DNA of 64,000 nt from a virus, in the IMG/VR virus record IMGVR_UViG_3300030037_000006, positions 1 through 64,000 of that record, one strand, 5' to 3'. Of the stretch, positions 7,330 to 60,887 are shown one piece after another. Positions within the stretch are counted from its first letter, which is position 1. Every line of letters starts with the position of its first letter. The notes beneath the pieces were generated by a model. It was given only the letters and a program-made list of their open reading frames with translations. It did no database searches and was not told the origin of the DNA. The position numbers were made by a program, and so were the translations under genes.

Positions 7330-7889
7330 AGAGAATTCCGAGGTTGTATGTTTGAAATATAAAATGTTGGAGGTTGATCAGGTGATTTGTACCACGCTGC
7401 TGCATCACACGTAGGATCCAGTTGATACATAACACCAAGTTCATGTGTTTTATCTAAGCTTACTAAAGGGTAAGGTAGATATGATGCTAAAGTATGTTCT
7501 TTGTTAAGATCAGATAATTCCTTTTCTGTAAGAGGTATCCCTATTCTGTTGTACTTTCTATTAAACAGATTGCCTGGAGATGTACGACAAATTTGTTTAA
7601 CACCTGTCTTAAGACGCTCAGAGATATACATCAATTGATTTGTCTTTCTATTAAGAGGTCTATTAGGAAGTCTATTCTTTTGACGCTCATCAAACTTTCT
7701 AAGGAAAGTATACTTACACGTATTAGAATAGAATACGTGACCCGGTCTTATTTTTGAAGGACTAGTAATGCCAGCATCTTTAAGGAAATGTTTAGTAACC
7801 TTCTTGTCGAGTTGAAGTCGACTTAATCCATCTATCTCATCACCTCCGTACATTTTAAGTGTAGCTTCTATAGTATCTCTGTTTGACAT
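7326..7889 (-). CDS. hypothetical basic protein
   Basis: 187-aa ORF, AGGAG RBS, promoter at 7918-7946. Confidence 0.65.
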   Translation of the reverse strand: MSNRDTIEATLKMYGGDEIDGLSRLQLDKKVTKHFLKDAGITSPSKIRPGHVFYSNTCKYTFLRKFDERQKNRLPNRPLNRKTNQLMYISERLKTGVKQICRTSPGNLFNRKYNRIGIPLTEKELSDLNKEHTLASYLPYPLVSLDKTHELGVMYQLDPTCDAAAWYKSPDQPPTFYISNIQPRNSL

Positions 7890-7931
7890 CGTATGTCTCC
7901 TTATTATTGCTTATCTAATAATATACCTTGA

Positions 7932-7977
7932 ATATGATAAGTACAACACAAAAGGCCTAAATAATAGACCTTTTATT
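7932..7977 (-). repeat. terminator + early promoter cassette, copy 1
   Basis: atatgataagtacaacacaaaaggcctaaataatagaccttttatt recurs at 14579-14625 with a 1-nt indel. Confidence 0.85.
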
Positions 7978-7987
7978 TTGTTTATTT

Positions 7988-8626
7988 TTAAATTTCTTTG
8001 ATACTTGTATAATCGTTACTTAATTCTCTTAGGTTAAAAGTTGCAACCTTTTTGAATATTGTATGAGGACCTGGTTCGTTGAGTCCTGCGTTAAAATATC
8101 CCAAAGTATAGTTGTTAGTATAACCAATGCTGCTATTATAAGATAATGTTATGTTAAGAATCTTGAACTTTACTTTAGTTCCGCAATATAAGTTTCTAAC
8201 TTTAGGGGATGATTCTGCAATATAGCATTTGTCTACTATAAGATCTATTAATCTATTTGAATTAAGATCTCTCTGTTTATCTTCAACATCACTTTGCATT
8301 CTATCATTAATAGTAATAACCCAACTACTACTTTTAATTTCATCAGTTAGCCGCTTTATCATTTCTTTATTTTGTTTGTTAGTCCAAATCTCGCGCTGAT
8401 GATTAGTAGCATAAGTTTCTTGACGCTTAATCAATCCATTTACTTTAATGTAACCAAGTAGCTGACGTCTAGCAAATCGAGATTTATTAATATCTCCAGC
8501 ATCAGTGAATCGTTTAGCACGGAGTTGATTATACATGTACTTAAGTTCAGAGTTTGAATATGACATCTTAGATTTAAAATCTTCAAAATGTAATCTCAAA
8601 AATTCAAAGTTAATATTCATTCTCAT
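7988..8626 (-). CDS. hypothetical protein
   Basis: 212-aa ORF. Confidence 0.6.
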   Translation of the reverse strand: MRMNINFEFLRLHFEDFKSKMSYSNSELKYMYNQLRAKRFTDAGDINKSRFARRQLLGYIKVNGLIKRQETYATNHQREIWTNKQNKEMIKRLTDEIKSSSWVITINDRMQSDVEDKQRDLNSNRLIDLIVDKCYIAESSPKVRNLYCGTKVKFKILNITLSYNSSIGYTNNYTLGYFNAGLNEPGPHTIFKKVATFNLRELSNDYTSIKEI

Positions 8627-14578: not shown

Positions 14579-14625
14579 ATATGATAAGTACAACACAAAA
14601 GGCCTAAATAAATAGACCTTTTATT
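14579..14625 (-). repeat. terminator + early promoter cassette, copy 2
   Basis: Near-identical to 7932-7977. Confidence 0.85.
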
Positions 14626-17046: not shown

Positions 17047-17119
17047 CTCCGCGGGCAGGGTACGATCCTACAACCTACTCATTAACAGTGAGTCGAACTA
17101 CCAATTGTTCTACCGCGGA
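17047..17119 (-). tRNA. tRNA-Asn(GTT)
   Basis: TCCGCGG/CCGCGGA; ACTCA-CTGTTAA-TGAGT; T-loop ATCGTAC. Confidence 0.9.
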
Positions 17120-17122
17120 ATT

Positions 17123-17791
17123 TTAAAATTTCATTTTTCTTCCTTTAATCCAACCTTTACTTAAATAATCTTCTAGATCAGTTTTATGTATAGATTTACT
17201 AACCTTTTCTTCAAGGCTATGAATCCAACATTTACCGAATTGAGAATTACCAGATCCTTTTTGAGCCTTCGATGTTACTAAGCCAATCTTTCTCTTAGTT
17301 TCATCTGTATGCTGTTTACCTAACCAGAAAGTATTTCCCTTAAGACCTTCAGATATATTTAAGCACCATTGCTCGTATTTACCTGATTCTTTAAGAACGT
17401 TTACTAATTCTGCTCCACATAAAAGATTCTGTTTTCCTCTGCCATCTTGACCATTTAATACATTACCATTATCGTCATAATATAAATTACCACCTGCTTC
17501 CATAGACTCATGCCAATTGGCACCTTGTCCACCTACACAGCGATTATAAGTATCAGATCGACATACAAAATCAAAGTCTACTAACTTAGCTTCTAATAAA
17601 TCCATTTCATCTGAATCGTTACATTCGAATAAAATTTCTCTCTCAAAGAACTTAGTTCCGAATAATTTAATATCTTCACGAAGTTTAGTACCAGAACCTA
17701 GATAACCATCATCTAGCTTTTCTGTTTTATGCTGACCTATATAGATCTTGTTGTTAATTGTATTGGTTGTTTTATAAATGATGTAGTGCAT
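17123..17791 (-). CDS. free-standing GIY-YIG (Seg-like) homing endonuclease
   Basis: YIIYKTTNTINNKIYIGQH...YLGSG...FEREIL; NUMOD3-like GKQHTDETKRKI; lies beside tRNAs, as T4 segB does. Confidence 0.88.
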   Translation of the reverse strand: MHYIIYKTTNTINNKIYIGQHKTEKLDDGYLGSGTKLREDIKLFGTKFFEREILFECNDSDEMDLLEAKLVDFDFVCRSDTYNRCVGGQGANWHESMEAGGNLYYDDNGNVLNGQDGRGKQNLLCGAELVNVLKESGKYEQWCLNISEGLKGNTFWLGKQHTDETKRKIGLVTSKAQKGSGNSQFGKCWIHSLEEKVSKSIHKTDLEDYLSKGWIKGRKMKF

Positions 17792-17977
17792 GATAAATTC
17801 CTATAGATTGTTCTATAGTTATTTATCTCTTAGTTCAAGAAGTTCGAACTAATCTTGAACTACATCAAGTTTTTCTTACATTTCTTACATTCTGTCAATG
17901 ATCTTTTTTAATAACTACGCTTTCGAGTTATTTGTTATATGATTTAATATACAACACTTTAGGTTTTTGTACAACAG

Positions 17978-18009
17978 AAAAGGGATAAAAACTAATGTTT
18001 TATCCCTTT
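17978..18009. terminator. bidirectional intrinsic terminator
   Basis: aaaagggataaaac-taat-gttttatcccttt. Confidence 0.75.
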
Positions 18010-18185
18010 ATTAATAAATTCTGTTACAAATATTATTCAGGGATTATGAACTCCACTATACGACGGATAGTCAGAGCCGCAAGGTTCTGATGTATTATTC
18101 ATTGTATTTTGTTGCTTAGTCATAATCATTTCGTTCTTTTAATTTGTATATGTATTTATCTGTTTTTCCGGTAGTAACTGACGGA

Positions 18186-19025
18186 CTATTGGTTCTTCAC
18201 TATATTCTTTAGTTTAGAAGTATGTACGCCTGCTAATTCTACACCATCTTTGAAATCGATAGTATAATGATCTTCTATAGATTCACCATCTCTATAAGTT
18301 CCACCACGGATTGTAGCTTCCTTTTCATCATAATGAGATAATGAGTTCGAACCAGATCTTAGGTCAGCATGATCAAAATTATACTTTCTATAATTATCTA
18401 AATCATTTTTGTCATATATGAAGATTGCGGTATCACCCTTAGATATATCAAATTCAGAATCAGTACTTTCATTTAATGATAGGTTTAGTTCAAAGAATTC
18501 ATCTACATCAGCAGCATTAATATAATCACCGTGACCTACGAATAGAACTCCATTAGAACTGAAATCTTTGATTCGTTTCTTTCTTCCTTCCTTGACCCAT
18601 AGTTTTTCATCACCGAAGAATGCTTTCTTGATAGTGATAGGATTGTATTGAAGCTTCTCTTTAGTAAGATCATGCTTAGCAACTAATGAATCTCCAATGG
18701 AATAAGATGCTTTAATCTTATCAATAAGTTCATCTGACTTTGCATGTTTAGCATCTGCTTCATCCTGCTTTTCTTGCTTCTGAGTTTCAACACTATCAAA
18801 TTTGTCAAGTAATGTTTTACTAATAGTGAAACTTCCATCACCTAAAACAGTTACAACATAATGATCATCATTTATTTCTGTAATTCTAAATTCAGAAGTT
18901 AAATAAGTCATATTAGGATGGTAACCTTTATAAGGACTAATCTCTCTTCGGTCTTTACTATATCCGTATCCTTGTGAACGGTGGATATCGAAATGATCTC
19001 CTACTTTATGTCCTTCAGTATACAC
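18186..19025 (-). CDS. hypothetical late protein
   Basis: GTG start overlaps the TAG of the upstream gene, GGAGA RBS; internal LNES site. Confidence 0.7.
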   Translation of the reverse strand: MYTEGHKVGDHFDIHRSQGYGYSKDRREISPYKGYHPNMTYLTSEFRITEINDDHYVVTVLGDGSFTISKTLLDKFDSVETQKQEKQDEADAKHAKSDELIDKIKASYSIGDSLVAKHDLTKEKLQYNPITIKKAFFGDEKLWVKEGRKKRIKDFSSNGVLFVGHGDYINAADVDEFFELNLSLNESTDSEFDISKGDTAIFIYDKNDLDNYRKYNFDHADLRSGSNSLSHYDEKEATIRGGTYRDGESIEDHYTIDFKDGVELAGVHTSKLKNIVKNQ

Positions 19026-28255: not shown

Positions 28256-29029
28256 ATGCCTATTAGCACAATTAATGATTTAGTTATTAAAGACAGAGAG
28301 TCTCTTTGTAATTGGATTGAAAGACAGTTTGGTGCCCCTTTGATTCGTGTTGAGCTTACACAAGAAATGCTCGAAGATGCGATCGATGAAGCCACCCAAG
28401 AATATACGAAGTATGTAACACCAGAAGAAAACTTCATGGTACTTGACAGCACTATGAAAGTAGAAGATATTCCTAATAACTTTGACGGATATAAACTTCC
28501 TGATAATATTGTTGGTGTGAATGGGGTTACTTCACAGAGAGCACTCAGAAACTTCGCAATGCAATTAGATCCAGGAATGAGTAGATCCACAGCGTTCGGT
28601 TTAAGTGGTGGTATAAGTTCTACTGGCACTCCCGGTTTTTTAACTAGCTTTCATATGACAATGTCTCATATTGATTTACTTGAAAGAATGGCCGGTGGAG
28701 ATTTTCAATTCAGATACAACAATGCTAACCAAGAATTACAGATTTACCCTGAACTCAAACCTCATGAAAAAGTTATAGTTCTAGGACAGGAATATCGTGA
28801 AGAACAATTCGTTTACGGTGAAAAATGGGTTAAAGAATATTCTAAAGCTTGTGCCGGTATTATGTTAGGTATGGTACGTGGTAAGCATGAATCAGTAACA
28901 CTATTAGGTGGATCATCTATTTCGGCTACTGCATCTAATTTCATTGATAAATTTGAAGCACGTAAAAGAGAATTAGAAGAAGAAATTCTTAAAAGAGAAT
29001 ATCAAGTTCTTCAGTTCTACACTATGTAA
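28256..29029 (+). CDS. neck protein (T4 gp13-like)
   Basis: FGAPLIRVELTQE.LEDAIDEA; WVKEYSKA...RGK...LLGG. Confidence 0.88.
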   Translation: MPISTINDLVIKDRESLCNWIERQFGAPLIRVELTQEMLEDAIDEATQEYTKYVTPEENFMVLDSTMKVEDIPNNFDGYKLPDNIVGVNGVTSQRALRNFAMQLDPGMSRSTAFGLSGGISSTGTPGFLTSFHMTMSHIDLLERMAGGDFQFRYNNANQELQIYPELKPHEKVIVLGQEYREEQFVYGEKWVKEYSKACAGIMLGMVRGKHESVTLLGGSSISATASNFIDKFEARKRELEEEILKREYQVLQFYTM

Positions 29030-34668: not shown

Positions 34669-35363
34669 TTAGCAGATATTTTAAATAGTGTTAAAGCATG
34701 AGTAGAGTTTGGATTTAGAGAAGCTATAAGTCTCTCTGTCTCATAAATACTAGCACCTGTACTTATCACATCATCAAGAATAAGAACGTTTTTATCTTCG
34801 ATTATTGCTAAGAGTTTATCTGAATCTTCTTCTGAAAATTCTAAGAATCCTCTGAATAACAAAGCGAATTGTTTAAAGACGTTCTTCATTTTGATCTCAT
34901 TAAAGCCTTTCTTACGTAATGACTTTATAGATTCGTCACCACCTTTTTGTACACTAGCTTTATGCTCATCTTTTATAACATCTAAGTTCATGTGTATGCT
35001 ATCTAAGTTAGATTTTTTAATATCATTGAAAATAATAACATCGTCTGGTACGATAGACATCAAATCTTTTAAAACTCTAGAATCACTTCCAGGTACTGCT
35101 AGTACATCGATATCATTTTCTTTAATGTAATCAAGCAAATACTCTTTACTTGTCTCTAACATATCTAAATATTCATCCTCAGTTATATTAGGGTCTGATT
35201 TCTTTATTTCTTTGATGTAAGCGATGCCTTCCTTTCCCATAGAGAAAACTGACTTAATTGCTAGACCTGAACCTGAATTCTTATCAGATTTCTTGTACAT
35301 TCCGTTCTTTTTCTTTTTAAATCTAGTACTTTCTGCTAAATATAAAGCTAAAAATTTACTCAT
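34665..35363 (-). CDS. type I phosphoribosyltransferase-domain protein with leader variant
   Basis: PRPP loop VLILDDVISTGAS; starts MSKFLALYLAES; late box at 35395-35402. Confidence 0.8.
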   Translation of the reverse strand: MSKFLALYLAESTRFKKKKNGMYKKSDKNSGSGLAIKSVFSMGKEGIAYIKEIKKSDPNITEDEYLDMLETSKEYLLDYIKENDIDVLAVPGSDSRVLKDLMSIVPDDVIIFNDIKKSNLDSIHMNLDVIKDEHKASVQKGGDESIKSLRKKGFNEIKMKNVFKQFALLFRGFLEFSEEDSDKLLAIIEDKNVLILDDVISTGASIYETERLIASLNPNSTHALTLFKISAN

Positions 35364-53924: not shown

Positions 53925-55592
<1,668 letters not shown>

Positions 55593-55689: not shown

Positions 55690-56724
55690 TTGTGCATGAG
55701 CATTCTAGCATTGGATGATTCACTAGAATCATTAACAAACTTATACACTACACTCGATTACATGTCAGAAGGCAATCCTATTTCGGATACTGCTAGAAGA
55801 CTAATAGGTGAAGTTGAACCTATCATCATTGCTTATGATGATGACTTTAAATCTTGGAAATCTTATACAGGAACTGAATTTAAAACTTTAGATAACGTAA
55901 AAGATAAAGACGTACTTGCAATAGACATCATGTATGTTGAAATGGTGGATGACAAAGCAGCTCTCGTACATCACAATAAAGCTAACAGTAGTACATCACT
56001 TAGTGTAATGGCACCTGTACTTCGATATAGTTCTAAAGATAATACAATTACTAACTTAATTAATGGATCAAGTGTCCCATCTAGTAATCCTCATGATATG
56101 TTATCAGGTTTCGATATCTCTCTCAACAACTCAAAGTTTATTGTCATGGATCCTGTATCACTTGAAGATGATGAAGATATTGACGTAGAAGATCTTGAAG
56201 ATCCTGAAAATACTGATATACCTGAAATGGAAGAAATCACAGAGTCAGTGACGCATGACAATTACGTTAACATTATAACTATACCTCTCACTAAAGCTAT
56301 CGATCATATCCGTCACTTCTATGCATTGTATGGCACTAATGGAACCACAGCTAAAAGGGCAATCGAATCTTCTGAATATATGCTTGATAGATTCGATAAG
56401 ATTTATAACATTCGTGCTTTAGATTCTGAAGTAACTGATAATCCAATTAGCTCAGATACTTTGTATAGTAAGTATGATCACATTATCGTAACTAGCAGAT
56501 GGAAGTTCAACCCTGAAATAGGATACTCGATGTCTGCTGATTCATCTTCACTTGGAGAAGATGATGTTATATTCGATGTGCCGATGGTTATTCTATCATA
56601 TTCAGATGACATCAATGGTCAAGTTGGAGTTATTGCTACTGACTTATATGATCATACATTTGATGCAGAAGAGACTGATGATTACTTGGACACTACAGAT
56701 ATAAAACTTCTCCTATTAAAATAA
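55690..56724 (+). CDS. acidic hypothetical late protein
   Basis: Late box at 55654-55661; likely start MSILAL (55696). Confidence 0.65.
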   Translation: MCMSILALDDSLESLTNLYTTLDYMSEGNPISDTARRLIGEVEPIIIAYDDDFKSWKSYTGTEFKTLDNVKDKDVLAIDIMYVEMVDDKAALVHHNKANSSTSLSVMAPVLRYSSKDNTITNLINGSSVPSSNPHDMLSGFDISLNNSKFIVMDPVSLEDDEDIDVEDLEDPENTDIPEMEEITESVTHDNYVNIITIPLTKAIDHIRHFYALYGTNGTTAKRAIESSEYMLDRFDKIYNIRALDSEVTDNPISSDTLYSKYDHIIVTSRWKFNPEIGYSMSADSSSLGEDDVIFDVPMVILSYSDDINGQVGVIATDLYDHTFDAEETDDYLDTTDIKLLLLK

Positions 56725-57722: not shown

Positions 57723-59774
57723 ATGTACAGAAATATTACGTATTCGTTAGACAAATTCAGAGAAGGTAAAATTAGACTCGATACATGGGATGAAGAAGGA
57801 AATCCTATTACTGAAATCCATGACCATGATTCAGAACTATATTACGAATCTAACACAGGTGAACATACGAGCATGTATGGCACTAAACTTAGACAACTTA
57901 CATTCAATTCAATAATAGAGAAATCTGTTTGGCGTAAATCCAACAGAGAAAGTAAACGAATCTTTAATGATCTTACACCTGTACGAGAATTCTTAGTAAA
58001 TAAATATGAAGGTCAGCAAGAGACAACTGATTTTACTAAGTTCCAATTCCGCAAATGGTTTCTGGATATTGAGATTGCTACAACCGGTGAAGGCTTTCCA
58101 GAATCTGATGTAGCAGAACAACCGGTTAATATCATATCGATATTTGATACATACCTTCAAGAGTATCATGTCTTCTATACTTTAGATCCTAAGCATCATA
58201 AAGATCAAGTAGATTTAGTACCAAAAGGTGAGAAATATCATGAAACATTTACTAAATTTAAAGAGAATAGAAAAACTGGTGAATGGGAAATTTCAGGTGG
58301 TGTAAAGTATAAGACAGTATATCATGACTGTAGAGATGAAAAGACTCTCTTTAAGGAGTATATACAGTTTACTGAAAACAATTACCCTGACATTATATCT
58401 GGATGGAATGTAGATGGCTTCGATGTACCATACATTTGCAACAGAGTCATTAATCTCTTTGATCAAAGAACTTTAGAAAGATTATCTCCAATTGGCAAGA
58501 TAAATGGCCGTGAAGTATTTGATATTATTAATCAAAAGACAGTTACTGAATTTACATTTGAAGGTATCACTGTGATGGATTATTGCTTCCTCTACAAGAA
58601 GAAGTTTAATATCATGGAAAAACGTACCAACTATAAGCTTGACACAATTGCATTCACTCACTTAGGTGCTGGTAAATTAGAATATGATTGTACTATTCAT
58701 GAATTCTGGCGTAGAGACATGGCAAACTATATCGAATACAATAGAATCGATGTGGAGAGAGTATATCAATTAGACTTAGTTCTGAACTATATCAACCTTG
58801 CTCGAACTCTTTGTAATATTGGTTTAGTAGAATACTCATGTATTTATAAATCAGCTCCATATATTTACGGTGCTCTTACTGTTCAAGCTCGATCTGAAGG
58901 ACGATTACTCTTATCATCTACACCAGAATCTCTTAATAGTAATGCAGATGATTATGCTGGTGGCTATGTTAAAAATGCTCAGGCTGGATTGTATCTAGAT
59001 GGCATTGCTTCGTACGACTTGAACTCACTATACCCATCCATTATTCGAACTCTTAACATATCACCTGAAACTAAGGTTGGTAGAGTTATTGATGACGATG
59101 ATCCTAATGAAATAGTATTCAGATACGAAACTGGTAACATGGAATACTTTACTGCTAAAGAATTTGAAGCATTTGAACGTAGATATATTAAAGCTGCTAA
59201 CGGAGTTTATTATGTCCAACATGAAGAGCTTCATGGAATTCTTCCTAAATGGTGTGCAAGATTATATGCTTTGCGTACATCTACACGTGCCACACAGAAA
59301 GAACATAAAGATTCTGTGATGAGATTACAGAATGAACTTGATGAAGATGGTACTACTAATCAACGTAAGAAAGAGATTAAATCTGAAATGACTACTCTAT
59401 CAGCATTGATTGATATCCTAGAATCTACTCAGCATGCAATTAAGATTGTTATTAATACTGCATACGGTGTTATTGGTAGTGCATTCTTCCAGTTATACGA
59501 TATTGAAAATGCAGAAGCTATTACAACATCAGGTCAATACATTATTCAGTGCGCGGATGGATTCATTAATAAGTATATCAGACATAAGTATAAAAATGCT
59601 CCGAGTGTAGTAGCAGATCCGTTAGAACAGACGGATCGAATAGTGTACGGAGATACGGATTCCGTGTCACAAGATACTCGTATCCAAACACTTAGACATA
59701 CGATCGATTCTAGTAGTGCAGTAAAGGAAACTATGCGTATCGATGATCTATTCGAAGCATATCTAATAGACTGA
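57723..59774 (+). CDS. polB: family B DNA polymerase, N-terminal part, fused to a split-intein N-fragment
   Basis: Exo FLDIE, GWNVDGFD, YNRID; pol SYDLNSLYPS, KIVINTAYG, YGDTD; then a 37-aa intein-like tail and a stop, thumb domain absent. Confidence 0.92.
   Translation: MYRNITYSLDKFREGKIRLDTWDEEGNPITEIHDHDSELYYESNTGEHTSMYGTKLRQLTFNSIIEKSVWRKSNRESKRIFNDLTPVREFLVNKYEGQQETTDFTKFQFRKWFLDIEIATTGEGFPESDVAEQPVNIISIFDTYLQEYHVFYTLDPKHHKDQVDLVPKGEKYHETFTKFKENRKTGEWEISGGVKYKTVYHDCRDEKTLFKEYIQFTENNYPDIISGWNVDGFDVPYICNRVINLFDQRTLERLSPIGKINGREVFDIINQKTVTEFTFEGITVMDYCFLYKKKFNIMEKRTNYKLDTIAFTHLGAGKLEYDCTIHEFWRRDMANYIEYNRIDVERVYQLDLVLNYINLARTLCNIGLVEYSCIYKSAPYIYGALTVQARSEGRLLLSSTPESLNSNADDYAGGYVKNAQAGLYLDGIASYDLNSLYPSIIRTLNISPETKVGRVIDDDDPNEIVFRYETGNMEYFTAKEFEAFERRYIKAANGVYYVQHEELHGILPKWCARLYALRTSTRATQKEHKDSVMRLQNELDEDGTTNQRKKEIKSEMTTLSALIDILESTQHAIKIVINTAYGVIGSAFFQLYDIENAEAITTSGQYIIQCADGFINKYIRHKYKNAPSVVADPLEQTDRIVYGDTDSVSQDTRIQTLRHTIDSSSAVKETMRIDDLFEAYLID
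59661..59771 (+). mobile_element. split intein N-fragment (37 aa, Ser1)
   Basis: SVSQDTRI...MRIDDLF right after YGDTD matches intein block A at the classical PolB YGDTD/S insertion site. Confidence 0.8.
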
Positions 59775-59781
59775 ATATAGC

Positions 59782-59835
59782 GATACTACCTCTGTATATG
59801 GATAAATACTAATACTAAATAACAGAGGTAGTATC
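59782..59835 (+). promoter_or_regulatory. RBS-sequestering hairpin with a late promoter in its loop
   Basis: 14-bp perfect IR gatactacctctgt / acagaggtagtatc covers GAGG; GATAAATA at 59801-59808. Confidence 0.85.
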
Positions 59836-59840
59836 CATAA

Positions 59841-60887
59841 ATGAATAATTTATTTAACAGCTTTATCCCGAACGAAGAATTTCAGATATATATTAATGCA
59901 TGCAATATTAATATATCCAGATATAAATGTAGATCATGTGAAAATAGTATATTAGACTTAGATTCCACACATAAAATTAGATGTAATCGAAGTAAGATAG
60001 TTCCTGGTGGTACGAGGAAAAATCCCAAACGGGACATTATACCTAATGAAATTGTATTTAACGGCTGGACCCACTGGGAAAAGAAATGGAACAACGGAGT
60101 CTTAGAACCAAAGAAATTCACGGAAGGATTAGAACTATATAGGCATACTTGTTGGAATTGTTTCTTTAAAAAATCTAAATGTAAATACGCCAAGAAGAAG
60201 CAAGTACCTCCACCTAATATACTAGTAGACAATCTACATTTGGTTTATGATATATCCGAGTCAGATTATAATGACATTCGGAATGCTAAATTTGACACAG
60301 CGTCTTTATCATCATTCATAAAACGCCATGGCAAAACTAAAGGAACACGGAAGTACAAAGAATACCAGAAACTCCAAGCATACGCTGGTAATTCACTCGA
60401 GTATTTCCAAGCAAAGTACGGTGATACAAAGGGCATTGAAAAATATTCAGAACTAAATGAAAACAAAACAAAAAACTGGATTGAATCTACTAGTAAGCAT
60501 AGTAAATATGGTAGTAGCTATAGTAAAGTATCGATGGGTTTATTTGAAAAAATTAAATCAGATGAATCTATGTATAAAGATAACGAATTCAAAATAGTTA
60601 ATTCAACTACTGGTAGAAACTATTTTGTTGATTTTTACAACCCATCTACAAAGAAAGTAATCGAATTCAACGGAGACTTTTGGCATGCAAACCCTTCCGT
60701 TGCTAGATATACACCAGATTCTATAGGTGCTCATGGTATGACGTCATCTGAAATTTGGGTTAAGGATAAAATAAGATTAGATGAAATTAAATCGCAAGGA
60801 TATGAAGTTTTAGTAGTATGGGAAAACGAGTATGCAAATGATCCTGTTGGAATTATTAATAAATGTATTAAATATTTAGAAGAATAG
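59841..60887 (+). CDS. free-standing Vsr-like (DUF559-type) homing endonuclease
   Basis: FVDFY...VIEFNGDFWHANP...W.KD..R.....GYEVLVVWE; N-terminal CxxC...CxxC and KxG...G..KY repeats. Confidence 0.85.
   Translation: MNNLFNSFIPNEEFQIYINACNINISRYKCRSCENSILDLDSTHKIRCNRSKIVPGGTRKNPKRDIIPNEIVFNGWTHWEKKWNNGVLEPKKFTEGLELYRHTCWNCFFKKSKCKYAKKKQVPPPNILVDNLHLVYDISESDYNDIRNAKFDTASLSSFIKRHGKTKGTRKYKEYQKLQAYAGNSLEYFQAKYGDTKGIEKYSELNENKTKNWIESTSKHSKYGSSYSKVSMGLFEKIKSDESMYKDNEFKIVNSTTGRNYFVDFYNPSTKKVIEFNGDFWHANPSVARYTPDSIGAHGMTSSEIWVKDKIRLDEIKSQGYEVLVVWENEYANDPVGIINKCIKYLEE

Follow-up and report, generated by a model that had tools for sequence, protein, structure and literature searches.

A phage replicative DNA polymerase very probably joined from two distant genes by an atypically split, serine-dependent intein

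In the fractured genes described by Dassa et al. 2009 (PMC2677866), a split intein occurs together with a free-standing endonuclease gene that is preceded by a hairpin (15 of 16 such leaders have one) and lies between the adjacent halves of the host gene. In jumbo phage MIJ3, PolB is interrupted by a split intein, and an HNH endonuclease separates the two neighbouring halves (PMC6892783). The Aes123 PolB1 intein of T4-like Aeromonas phages is split into 120 + 39 residues (PMC11923092, the source of PDB 9hth). PolB16 OarG, a split intein from a sheep gut metagenome (PDB 8cpn/8cpo), consists of 15 + 168 residues (PMC10189870). Cyanobacterial DnaE and the PolB of Nanoarchaeum equitans provide examples of unlinked halves that protein trans-splicing unites, and the gene-breaking model holds that such uncoupling comes after loss of the endonuclease (both PMC2677866). 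Here we analyse 64,000 nucleotides (positions 1 to 64,000, hereafter the window) of IMG/VR virus record IMGVR_UViG_3300030037_000006, in which a PolB gene breaks off shortly after its YGDTD motif and is followed directly by a Vsr-like endonuclease gene (Table 1). We argue that this phage very probably makes its replicative PolB as two precursors, whose genes lie at least 48 kb apart and whose union depends on split-intein trans-splicing.

The locus resembles each of these systems in part. With the fractured genes it shares the split intein and the free-standing endonuclease gene with a hairpin in its 5′ untranslated region, but the endonuclease does not lie between adjacent halves: it stays with the N half alone, and the C half is on another record, 48 kb or more away. 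The intein blocks resemble those of MIJ3, the endonuclease of which is of another type. Aes123 PolB1 is likewise a cysteine-independent intein of a phage PolB, and ranks first among structural-database relatives of the C half described below, but it has a typical split at the endonuclease position. PolB16 OarG sits in the same host protein, with an N-extein ending in GDTD, Ser1 and Ser+1, and a short N-piece paired with a long C-piece; it also has the R/K-H of motif NX (a His after Arg or Lys, upstream of block B, as defined in PMC10189870) and two non-catalytic cysteines in its C-piece, one of them within the block B motif. Its split point follows the first strand, whereas that of the intein here follows the first helix (37 + 136 residues). 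DnaE and the Nanoarchaeum PolB are also replicative polymerases with halves at separate loci, but these are cellular genes with a typical split and loci that lack an endonuclease, and DnaE uses Cys. Terminases are the host proteins of the AceL-TerL type of intein, which relies on Cys1. Inteins of that type share with the present case a short N-piece (15–25 residues, as cited in PMC11923092) and a proportionally long C-piece. On these comparisons, the intein is a member of a known family with a different natural split point. A preliminary description of the window, made from its letters, had made an atypically split PolB intein seem more unusual than it is: Ser1/Ser+1 inteins with such a split had already been described at the same site (PolB16 OarG). 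The layout itself, with the halves uncoupled in a phage and the endonuclease kept beside the N half, was not found described in a limited literature search.

The N half is a 683-residue open reading frame, with AAGGA as a ribosome-binding site 10 nucleotides 5′ of its start, that matches DNA_pol_B_exo1 (PF03104, E 2.4e-17) and DNA_pol_B (PF00136, E 2.6e-32), the latter alignment reaching only profile position 255 of 453. Its N-extein comprises the N-terminal domain, the 3′–5′ exonuclease, palm motif A, the fingers and motif C, and closes in YGDTD, the last residue of which is residue 646; a tail of 37 residues without Cys follows, and then the stop codon TGA at 59772–59774. The identical 683-residue protein is also recorded from a contig of 255,591 bp, so the stop at 59772 is not peculiar to the window's record.

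The tail, which starts with Ser1 immediately past DTD, contains block A (N1) and the first helix. Its score is 29.0 bits when the profile is built from 32 intein N-termini and 9.5 bits when it is built from 111 native continuations. In an alignment with 13 contiguous inteins of the same insertion site it matches their N-termini, the S-V-x-x-D-T-x-I pattern included. In intein-free relatives, among the 120 best homologues, DTD is followed by S, an aliphatic residue (V, L or I) and then Y or F, whereas in intein-bearing relatives (the Pfam intein domain and at least 20 IMG/VR loci) it is followed by S-[VC]-x-x-[DE]-[TS]-x-[IV]-x-T and, a few residues past this pattern, by an I-E-D-L-[FY] helix; the window's tail shows both intein-type features. 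Because of this intein-type continuation and the two profile scores, we read the tail as the N-terminal piece of an intein beginning at Ser1. A search of PDB sequences with the tail alone gave no match, the query being too short. The preliminary description had recognised the PolB motifs through YGDTD ahead of a Cys-free 37-residue tail and a stop, and had taken YGDTD/S as the insertion site and the tail as an intein N-piece with block A; the reading frame and Pfam matches, the family comparison, the alignment and the profile scores all agree with it, and the site is DTD|S, with Ser1 and Ser+1.

Neither a polymerase C-terminus nor an intein C-piece is present anywhere in the 90,761-bp record to which the window belongs (estimated to be 33% complete), the window included, as judged by PF00136, PF14890 and tblastn searches of the record with the C-parts of 14 relatives and with the partner protein itself. 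A tblastn match at 28352–28447 (E 0.064) was set aside as due to chance, since it falls in a structural-gene open reading frame beside a sheath-like gene. The partner came from an exhaustive search of 1.84 billion representative proteins with a profile built from 16 proteins that combine an intein C-piece with a PolB C-terminus (alignment A1), which listed a protein of 433 residues, P0248. Word-indexed protein searches with the C-regions of P0011 and P0002 returned many proteins of this combined type, in two sizes, and did not list P0248; a metagenome scan with P0248 and viral scans with the N protein and with P0266 gave no match. Another candidate, P0124 (317 residues, from a contig of 259,233 bp), was rejected: its C-intein of about 43 residues is too short to complement a piece of 37, and it comes from a different contig.

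P0248 consists of a 136-residue C-intein closing in H-N, followed by Ser+1 as the first residue of a 297-residue polymerase C-terminus that begins S-V-Y-V-N and holds the rest of the palm, the KKRY motif and the thumb. It starts about nine residues ahead of the conserved GHE motif, which is exactly where the window's piece ends, and its match to PF14890 (E 5e-10, over the cut-off) spans profile positions 37–155 of 155, so that P0248 lacks just the part, about positions 1–36, that the window supplies. It also matches PDB 9hth (E 5.4e-16) and the PolB16 intein (8cpn/8cpo, about 1e-6). The gene has a strong ribosome-binding site (AAGGAG), shares 8 nucleotides with the end of a DUF7275 gene and has as further neighbours an NrdB-like gene (from its translation alone) and helicase, MazG-like and sigma-like genes. 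Neither half has neighbours that proved syntenic with the PolB loci of relatives.

The two pieces fit each other. Joined in silico they form an intein of 173 residues that aligns end to end with the 13 contiguous mini-inteins, which occupy the same site and have a similar length, and the split point lies past the first helix, in a variable loop that leads to the GHE strand. The catalytic set is complete: the N-piece provides Ser1 and block A, and the C-piece the R-H of motif NX (within the stretch K-R-L-I-R-H-K-V), T-x-x-H of block B, block F and H-N of block G, with Ser+1 behind it. The pair has the sequence marks of class 1 split inteins (a position-1 nucleophile with block A; blocks B, F and G with a +1 Ser; a restored host junction), the Ser1/Ser+1 pair and motif NX of cysteine-independent ones, and the proportions of an atypical split, with one piece far below 100 residues and the other above 100. 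Removal of the intein gives DTD|S-V-Y-V-N, the native pattern of intein-free relatives, in a predicted polymerase of 943 residues. The exteins also appear to be of one ancestry, as their nearest intein-free relatives are P0003, P0026 and P0002 in both cases (C-extein 40–44% and N piece 41–43% identical), and across 85 relatives the bit score of one half is correlated with that of the other (Spearman 0.90).

P0248 is encoded on a second IMG/VR record, G006, and several features place the two records in what we take to be one phage genome. Both P0248 and the N protein occur as singletons, with a single contig of 255,591 bp and an identical set of four sources on record for each; the guanine-plus-cytosine content is 33.2% in G006 and 33.5% in the window's record; their tetranucleotide use is correlated at r 0.993, as against 0.994 between the two halves of the window's record and 0.20–0.90 for relatives; dispersed repeats of 45–75 nucleotides with 82–98% identity are common to both; and each record has just one polymerase half. 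Together the records account for 210 kb of 255.6 kb. They share no long overlap and no end overlap of 15–300 nucleotides; from the distances to the record ends, the two genes are separated by at least 48,074 bp if they lie on opposite strands and by at least about 74.8 kb if on the same strand. The preliminary description had seen no C-intein with a PolB C-terminus in the window and had supposed an unlinked partner with Hint blocks B, F and G, H-N, and then S and the rest of PolB. The profile and tblastn searches, including that with the true partner as query, agree with the former, and P0248 answers to the latter. The description had also thought the intein likely to be Cys-free, which is true of the catalytic residues and the N-piece but not of the C-piece, where Cys occurs at positions 21 and 64, both non-catalytic, one of them directly following the block B His. 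The dispersed repeats, copies of which lie at 7931–7979 and 14579–14625 of the window, at G000 77800–77869 and 80159–80207, and at G006 34714–34763 and 55737–55806, may be regulatory elements.

Table 1. Coordinates of the polymerase halves, the intein N-piece, the endonuclease gene and its leader hairpin (window positions unless a record is named).
Feature	Position	Strand	Evidence or size
PolB N precursor, open reading frame	57723..59774	+	683 residues
PolB N-extein, residues 1–646	57723..59660	+	PF03104, PF00136; 43% identity to full-length relative P0002
Intein N-piece, 37 residues	59661..59771	+	alignment to 13 contiguous inteins; profile score
RNA hairpin in 66-nucleotide spacer	59782..59835	+	minimum free energy -22.4 kcal/mol, z -5.18
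Free-standing Vsr-like homing endonuclease, 348 residues	59841..60887	+	DUF559, phrog_22677, alignment, Foldseek
P0248 gene	G006 17,088–18,389 (L060:10001–11302)	-	100% identity, IMG/VR record of 119,584 bp

The gene that follows the N half had been proposed to encode a Vsr-like endonuclease of the fractured-gene type, and several lines of comparison concur. Its product is rich in Cys towards the N terminus, has helical repeats and carries its catalytic domain at the C terminus; it matches DUF559, which has a Vsr-like fold (22.3 bits, cut-off 20.6), and phrog_22677 (E 4.9e-29). It is 30–35% identical (E 1e-20 to 1e-32) to open reading frames that lie between PolB halves in at least nine IMG/VR relatives, and in an alignment of 13 sequences it keeps every invariant column, including an Asp, E-x-x-G-D-x-W-H-x-N-P and a W-E pair (the conserved columns are also listed as D, E, G-D, F-W-H, N-P and W-E). 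An AlphaFold model has a mean predicted local distance difference test score of 63.8, with 80–92 in the catalytic domain, and the structures that Foldseek ranks highest are E. coli Vsr (1vsr), I-Bth0305I (3r3p) and the Vsr–DNA complex (1cw0), at weak E-values of 0.03–0.15. No homologue of the endonuclease was found on G006. The spacer ahead of the gene folds into a hairpin that none of 200 shuffled sequences equalled, and because the endonuclease gene's GAGG (59825–59828) lies within its 3′ arm, the hairpin probably attenuates translation of the endonuclease. Downstream of the endonuclease gene there are small, unassigned open reading frames and then a primase gene.

Taken with the evidence from the two halves, these features suggest the following course of events. 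The two intein pieces would associate into one HINT fold, Ser1 would attack the preceding peptide bond, Ser+1 would take over the N-extein and the terminal Asn would cyclise, releasing the 943-residue polymerase with its DTD-S-V-Y junction. The endonuclease gene, directly after the gene for the N precursor, would be held down by the hairpin that sequesters its ribosome-binding site. Since endonucleases of the same family sit between PolB halves in relatives, it is the likely breaker of an ancestral contiguous mini-intein, and a later rearrangement would have moved the C half away.

Some observations weigh against trans-splicing as proposed here. The first hairpin loop of the N-piece is 8–10 residues longer than in relatives, and the intein-N profile score of the tail is below that of every intein used to train the profile. 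The apparent linkage of the halves rests on the shared 255,591-bp contig and sources, on composition and on repeats. Moreover, Aeh1 NrdA and the T4-like gp43A/B function as complexes without splicing (PMC2677866), and the two chains here might likewise assemble non-covalently, with the intein pieces serving as affinity modules that no longer splice. The relatives G005 and G001 have PolB pieces that lie far apart and lack an intein, N pieces such as P0030 are of this kind, and the phage's own NrdA is split into two adjacent open reading frames. Yet Ser1, T-x-x-H, the R-H of motif NX, H-N and Ser+1 are all conserved, and excision exactly restores DTD-S-V-Y, in the absence of which 173 foreign residues would stay in the active-site motif; we therefore consider an assembly without splicing distinctly improbable.

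Less credence still is due to the idea that the N gene is a decayed remnant, left by a deletion linked to the endonuclease that removed the intein and the C-terminal part of the polymerase, and that another enzyme replicates the phage. It is true that relatives with this endonuclease family mostly have an N-intein piece of 116–138 residues and an adjacent C half, whereas here the N-piece has only 37 residues and no polymerase-like sequence comes next. But this phage also has an exactly complementary partner, whose frame is intact, whose ribosome-binding site is strong and whose extein is of matching ancestry, and neither a PolA on the 90.7-kb record nor a second PolB N piece on either record was found. 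That the tail is ordinary palm sequence of a merely truncated, intein-free gene, a reading that came from BLASTP alignments running colinearly across it in two unsplit T4-like polymerases and from tblastn matches extending to query residues 678–683, was dropped after the family-specific comparison and is scarcely credible, as the native profile aligns with YGDTDSV only, the tail lacks at position 3 the aromatic residue of native relatives, and the native continuation S-V-Y-V-N sits in the partner, directly past H-N.

Trans-splicing between distant genes thus remains by far the preferred reading, and it has some consequences. That the halves are far apart although the endonuclease is retained bears on the model which places uncoupling after endonuclease loss (PMC2677866). 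It might be that the uncoupling is itself functional rather than merely tolerated: with the precursors in different operons, 48 kb or more from each other, replication would depend on post-translational ligation, and the intact endonuclease, now deprived of homing with both flanks, would serve as a weapon against co-infecting relatives that have a contiguous polymerase gene. We think this rather unlikely, but if true it would represent a stage that the gene-breaking model does not foresee. Few natural cysteine-independent split inteins have been characterised, and such inteins are wanted as ligation tools under oxidising conditions (PMC10189870, PMC11923092). The present pair adds a natural 37 + 136 split point, with an N-piece that is free of Cys and short enough for chemical synthesis.

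Related large phages show how varied the breakage of PolB can be. Contiguous mini-inteins occur in P0011, P0014 and L015–L017, and typical splits, with N-pieces of 116–138 residues, C-pieces of about 45 and this endonuclease family between them, in L022–L034. Splits after the first strand, like that of PolB16, are found in P0121–P0128 and L009, and splits after the first helix, as in the window's phage, in P0237, P0240 and P0333. In the complete 243-kb genome G005 (L067/L068), a piece with the exonuclease and motif A is separated from the rest by about 50 kb, is encoded on the opposite strand and has an intein-less end, and G001 resembles it with a gap of 20 kb; unlinked polymerase pieces are therefore tolerated in this phage group. 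With contiguous inteins, three split points and intein-free breaks with distant pieces, PolB is a breakage hot spot in these phages. In G005 and in L009, from a 387-kb relative, the polymerase is in three pieces (exonuclease and motif A; fingers to DTD with the intein N-piece; intein C-piece with the thumb), and in L009 the first of these lies downstream of the C piece. In L006 and L007 the intein seems to sit two residues earlier, as Y-G-D is followed by S-V-x-G-D-S, which would be a site of the type YGD|intein|TD and not DTD|S.

Other genes of these records also deserve mention. Past the end of the window, the large subunit of ribonucleotide reductase (NrdA) is encoded in two adjacent open reading frames (G000 70044–71528 and 71528–72544; L058:6044–7528 and 7528–8544), which match PF02867 at positions 1–221 and 219–522, respectively; there is no intein match and no endonuclease between them, and the arrangement recalls the genes-in-pieces of Aeh1 NrdA. 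About 2 kb upstream of the polymerase gene, at 53940–55592 of the window, lies a full-length gene for a GroEL-like chaperonin of 550 residues, identified from its translation. Finally, a frame of 676 residues on the minus strand of G006 (93066–95093, from L065) resembles a RecA/UvsX-type recombinase whose Walker A motif is broken by a contiguous intein of about 270 residues, which starts with Cys, closes in H-N, is followed by S-G-K-S and matches PF14890 in its C-terminal blocks (E 3.9e-4).

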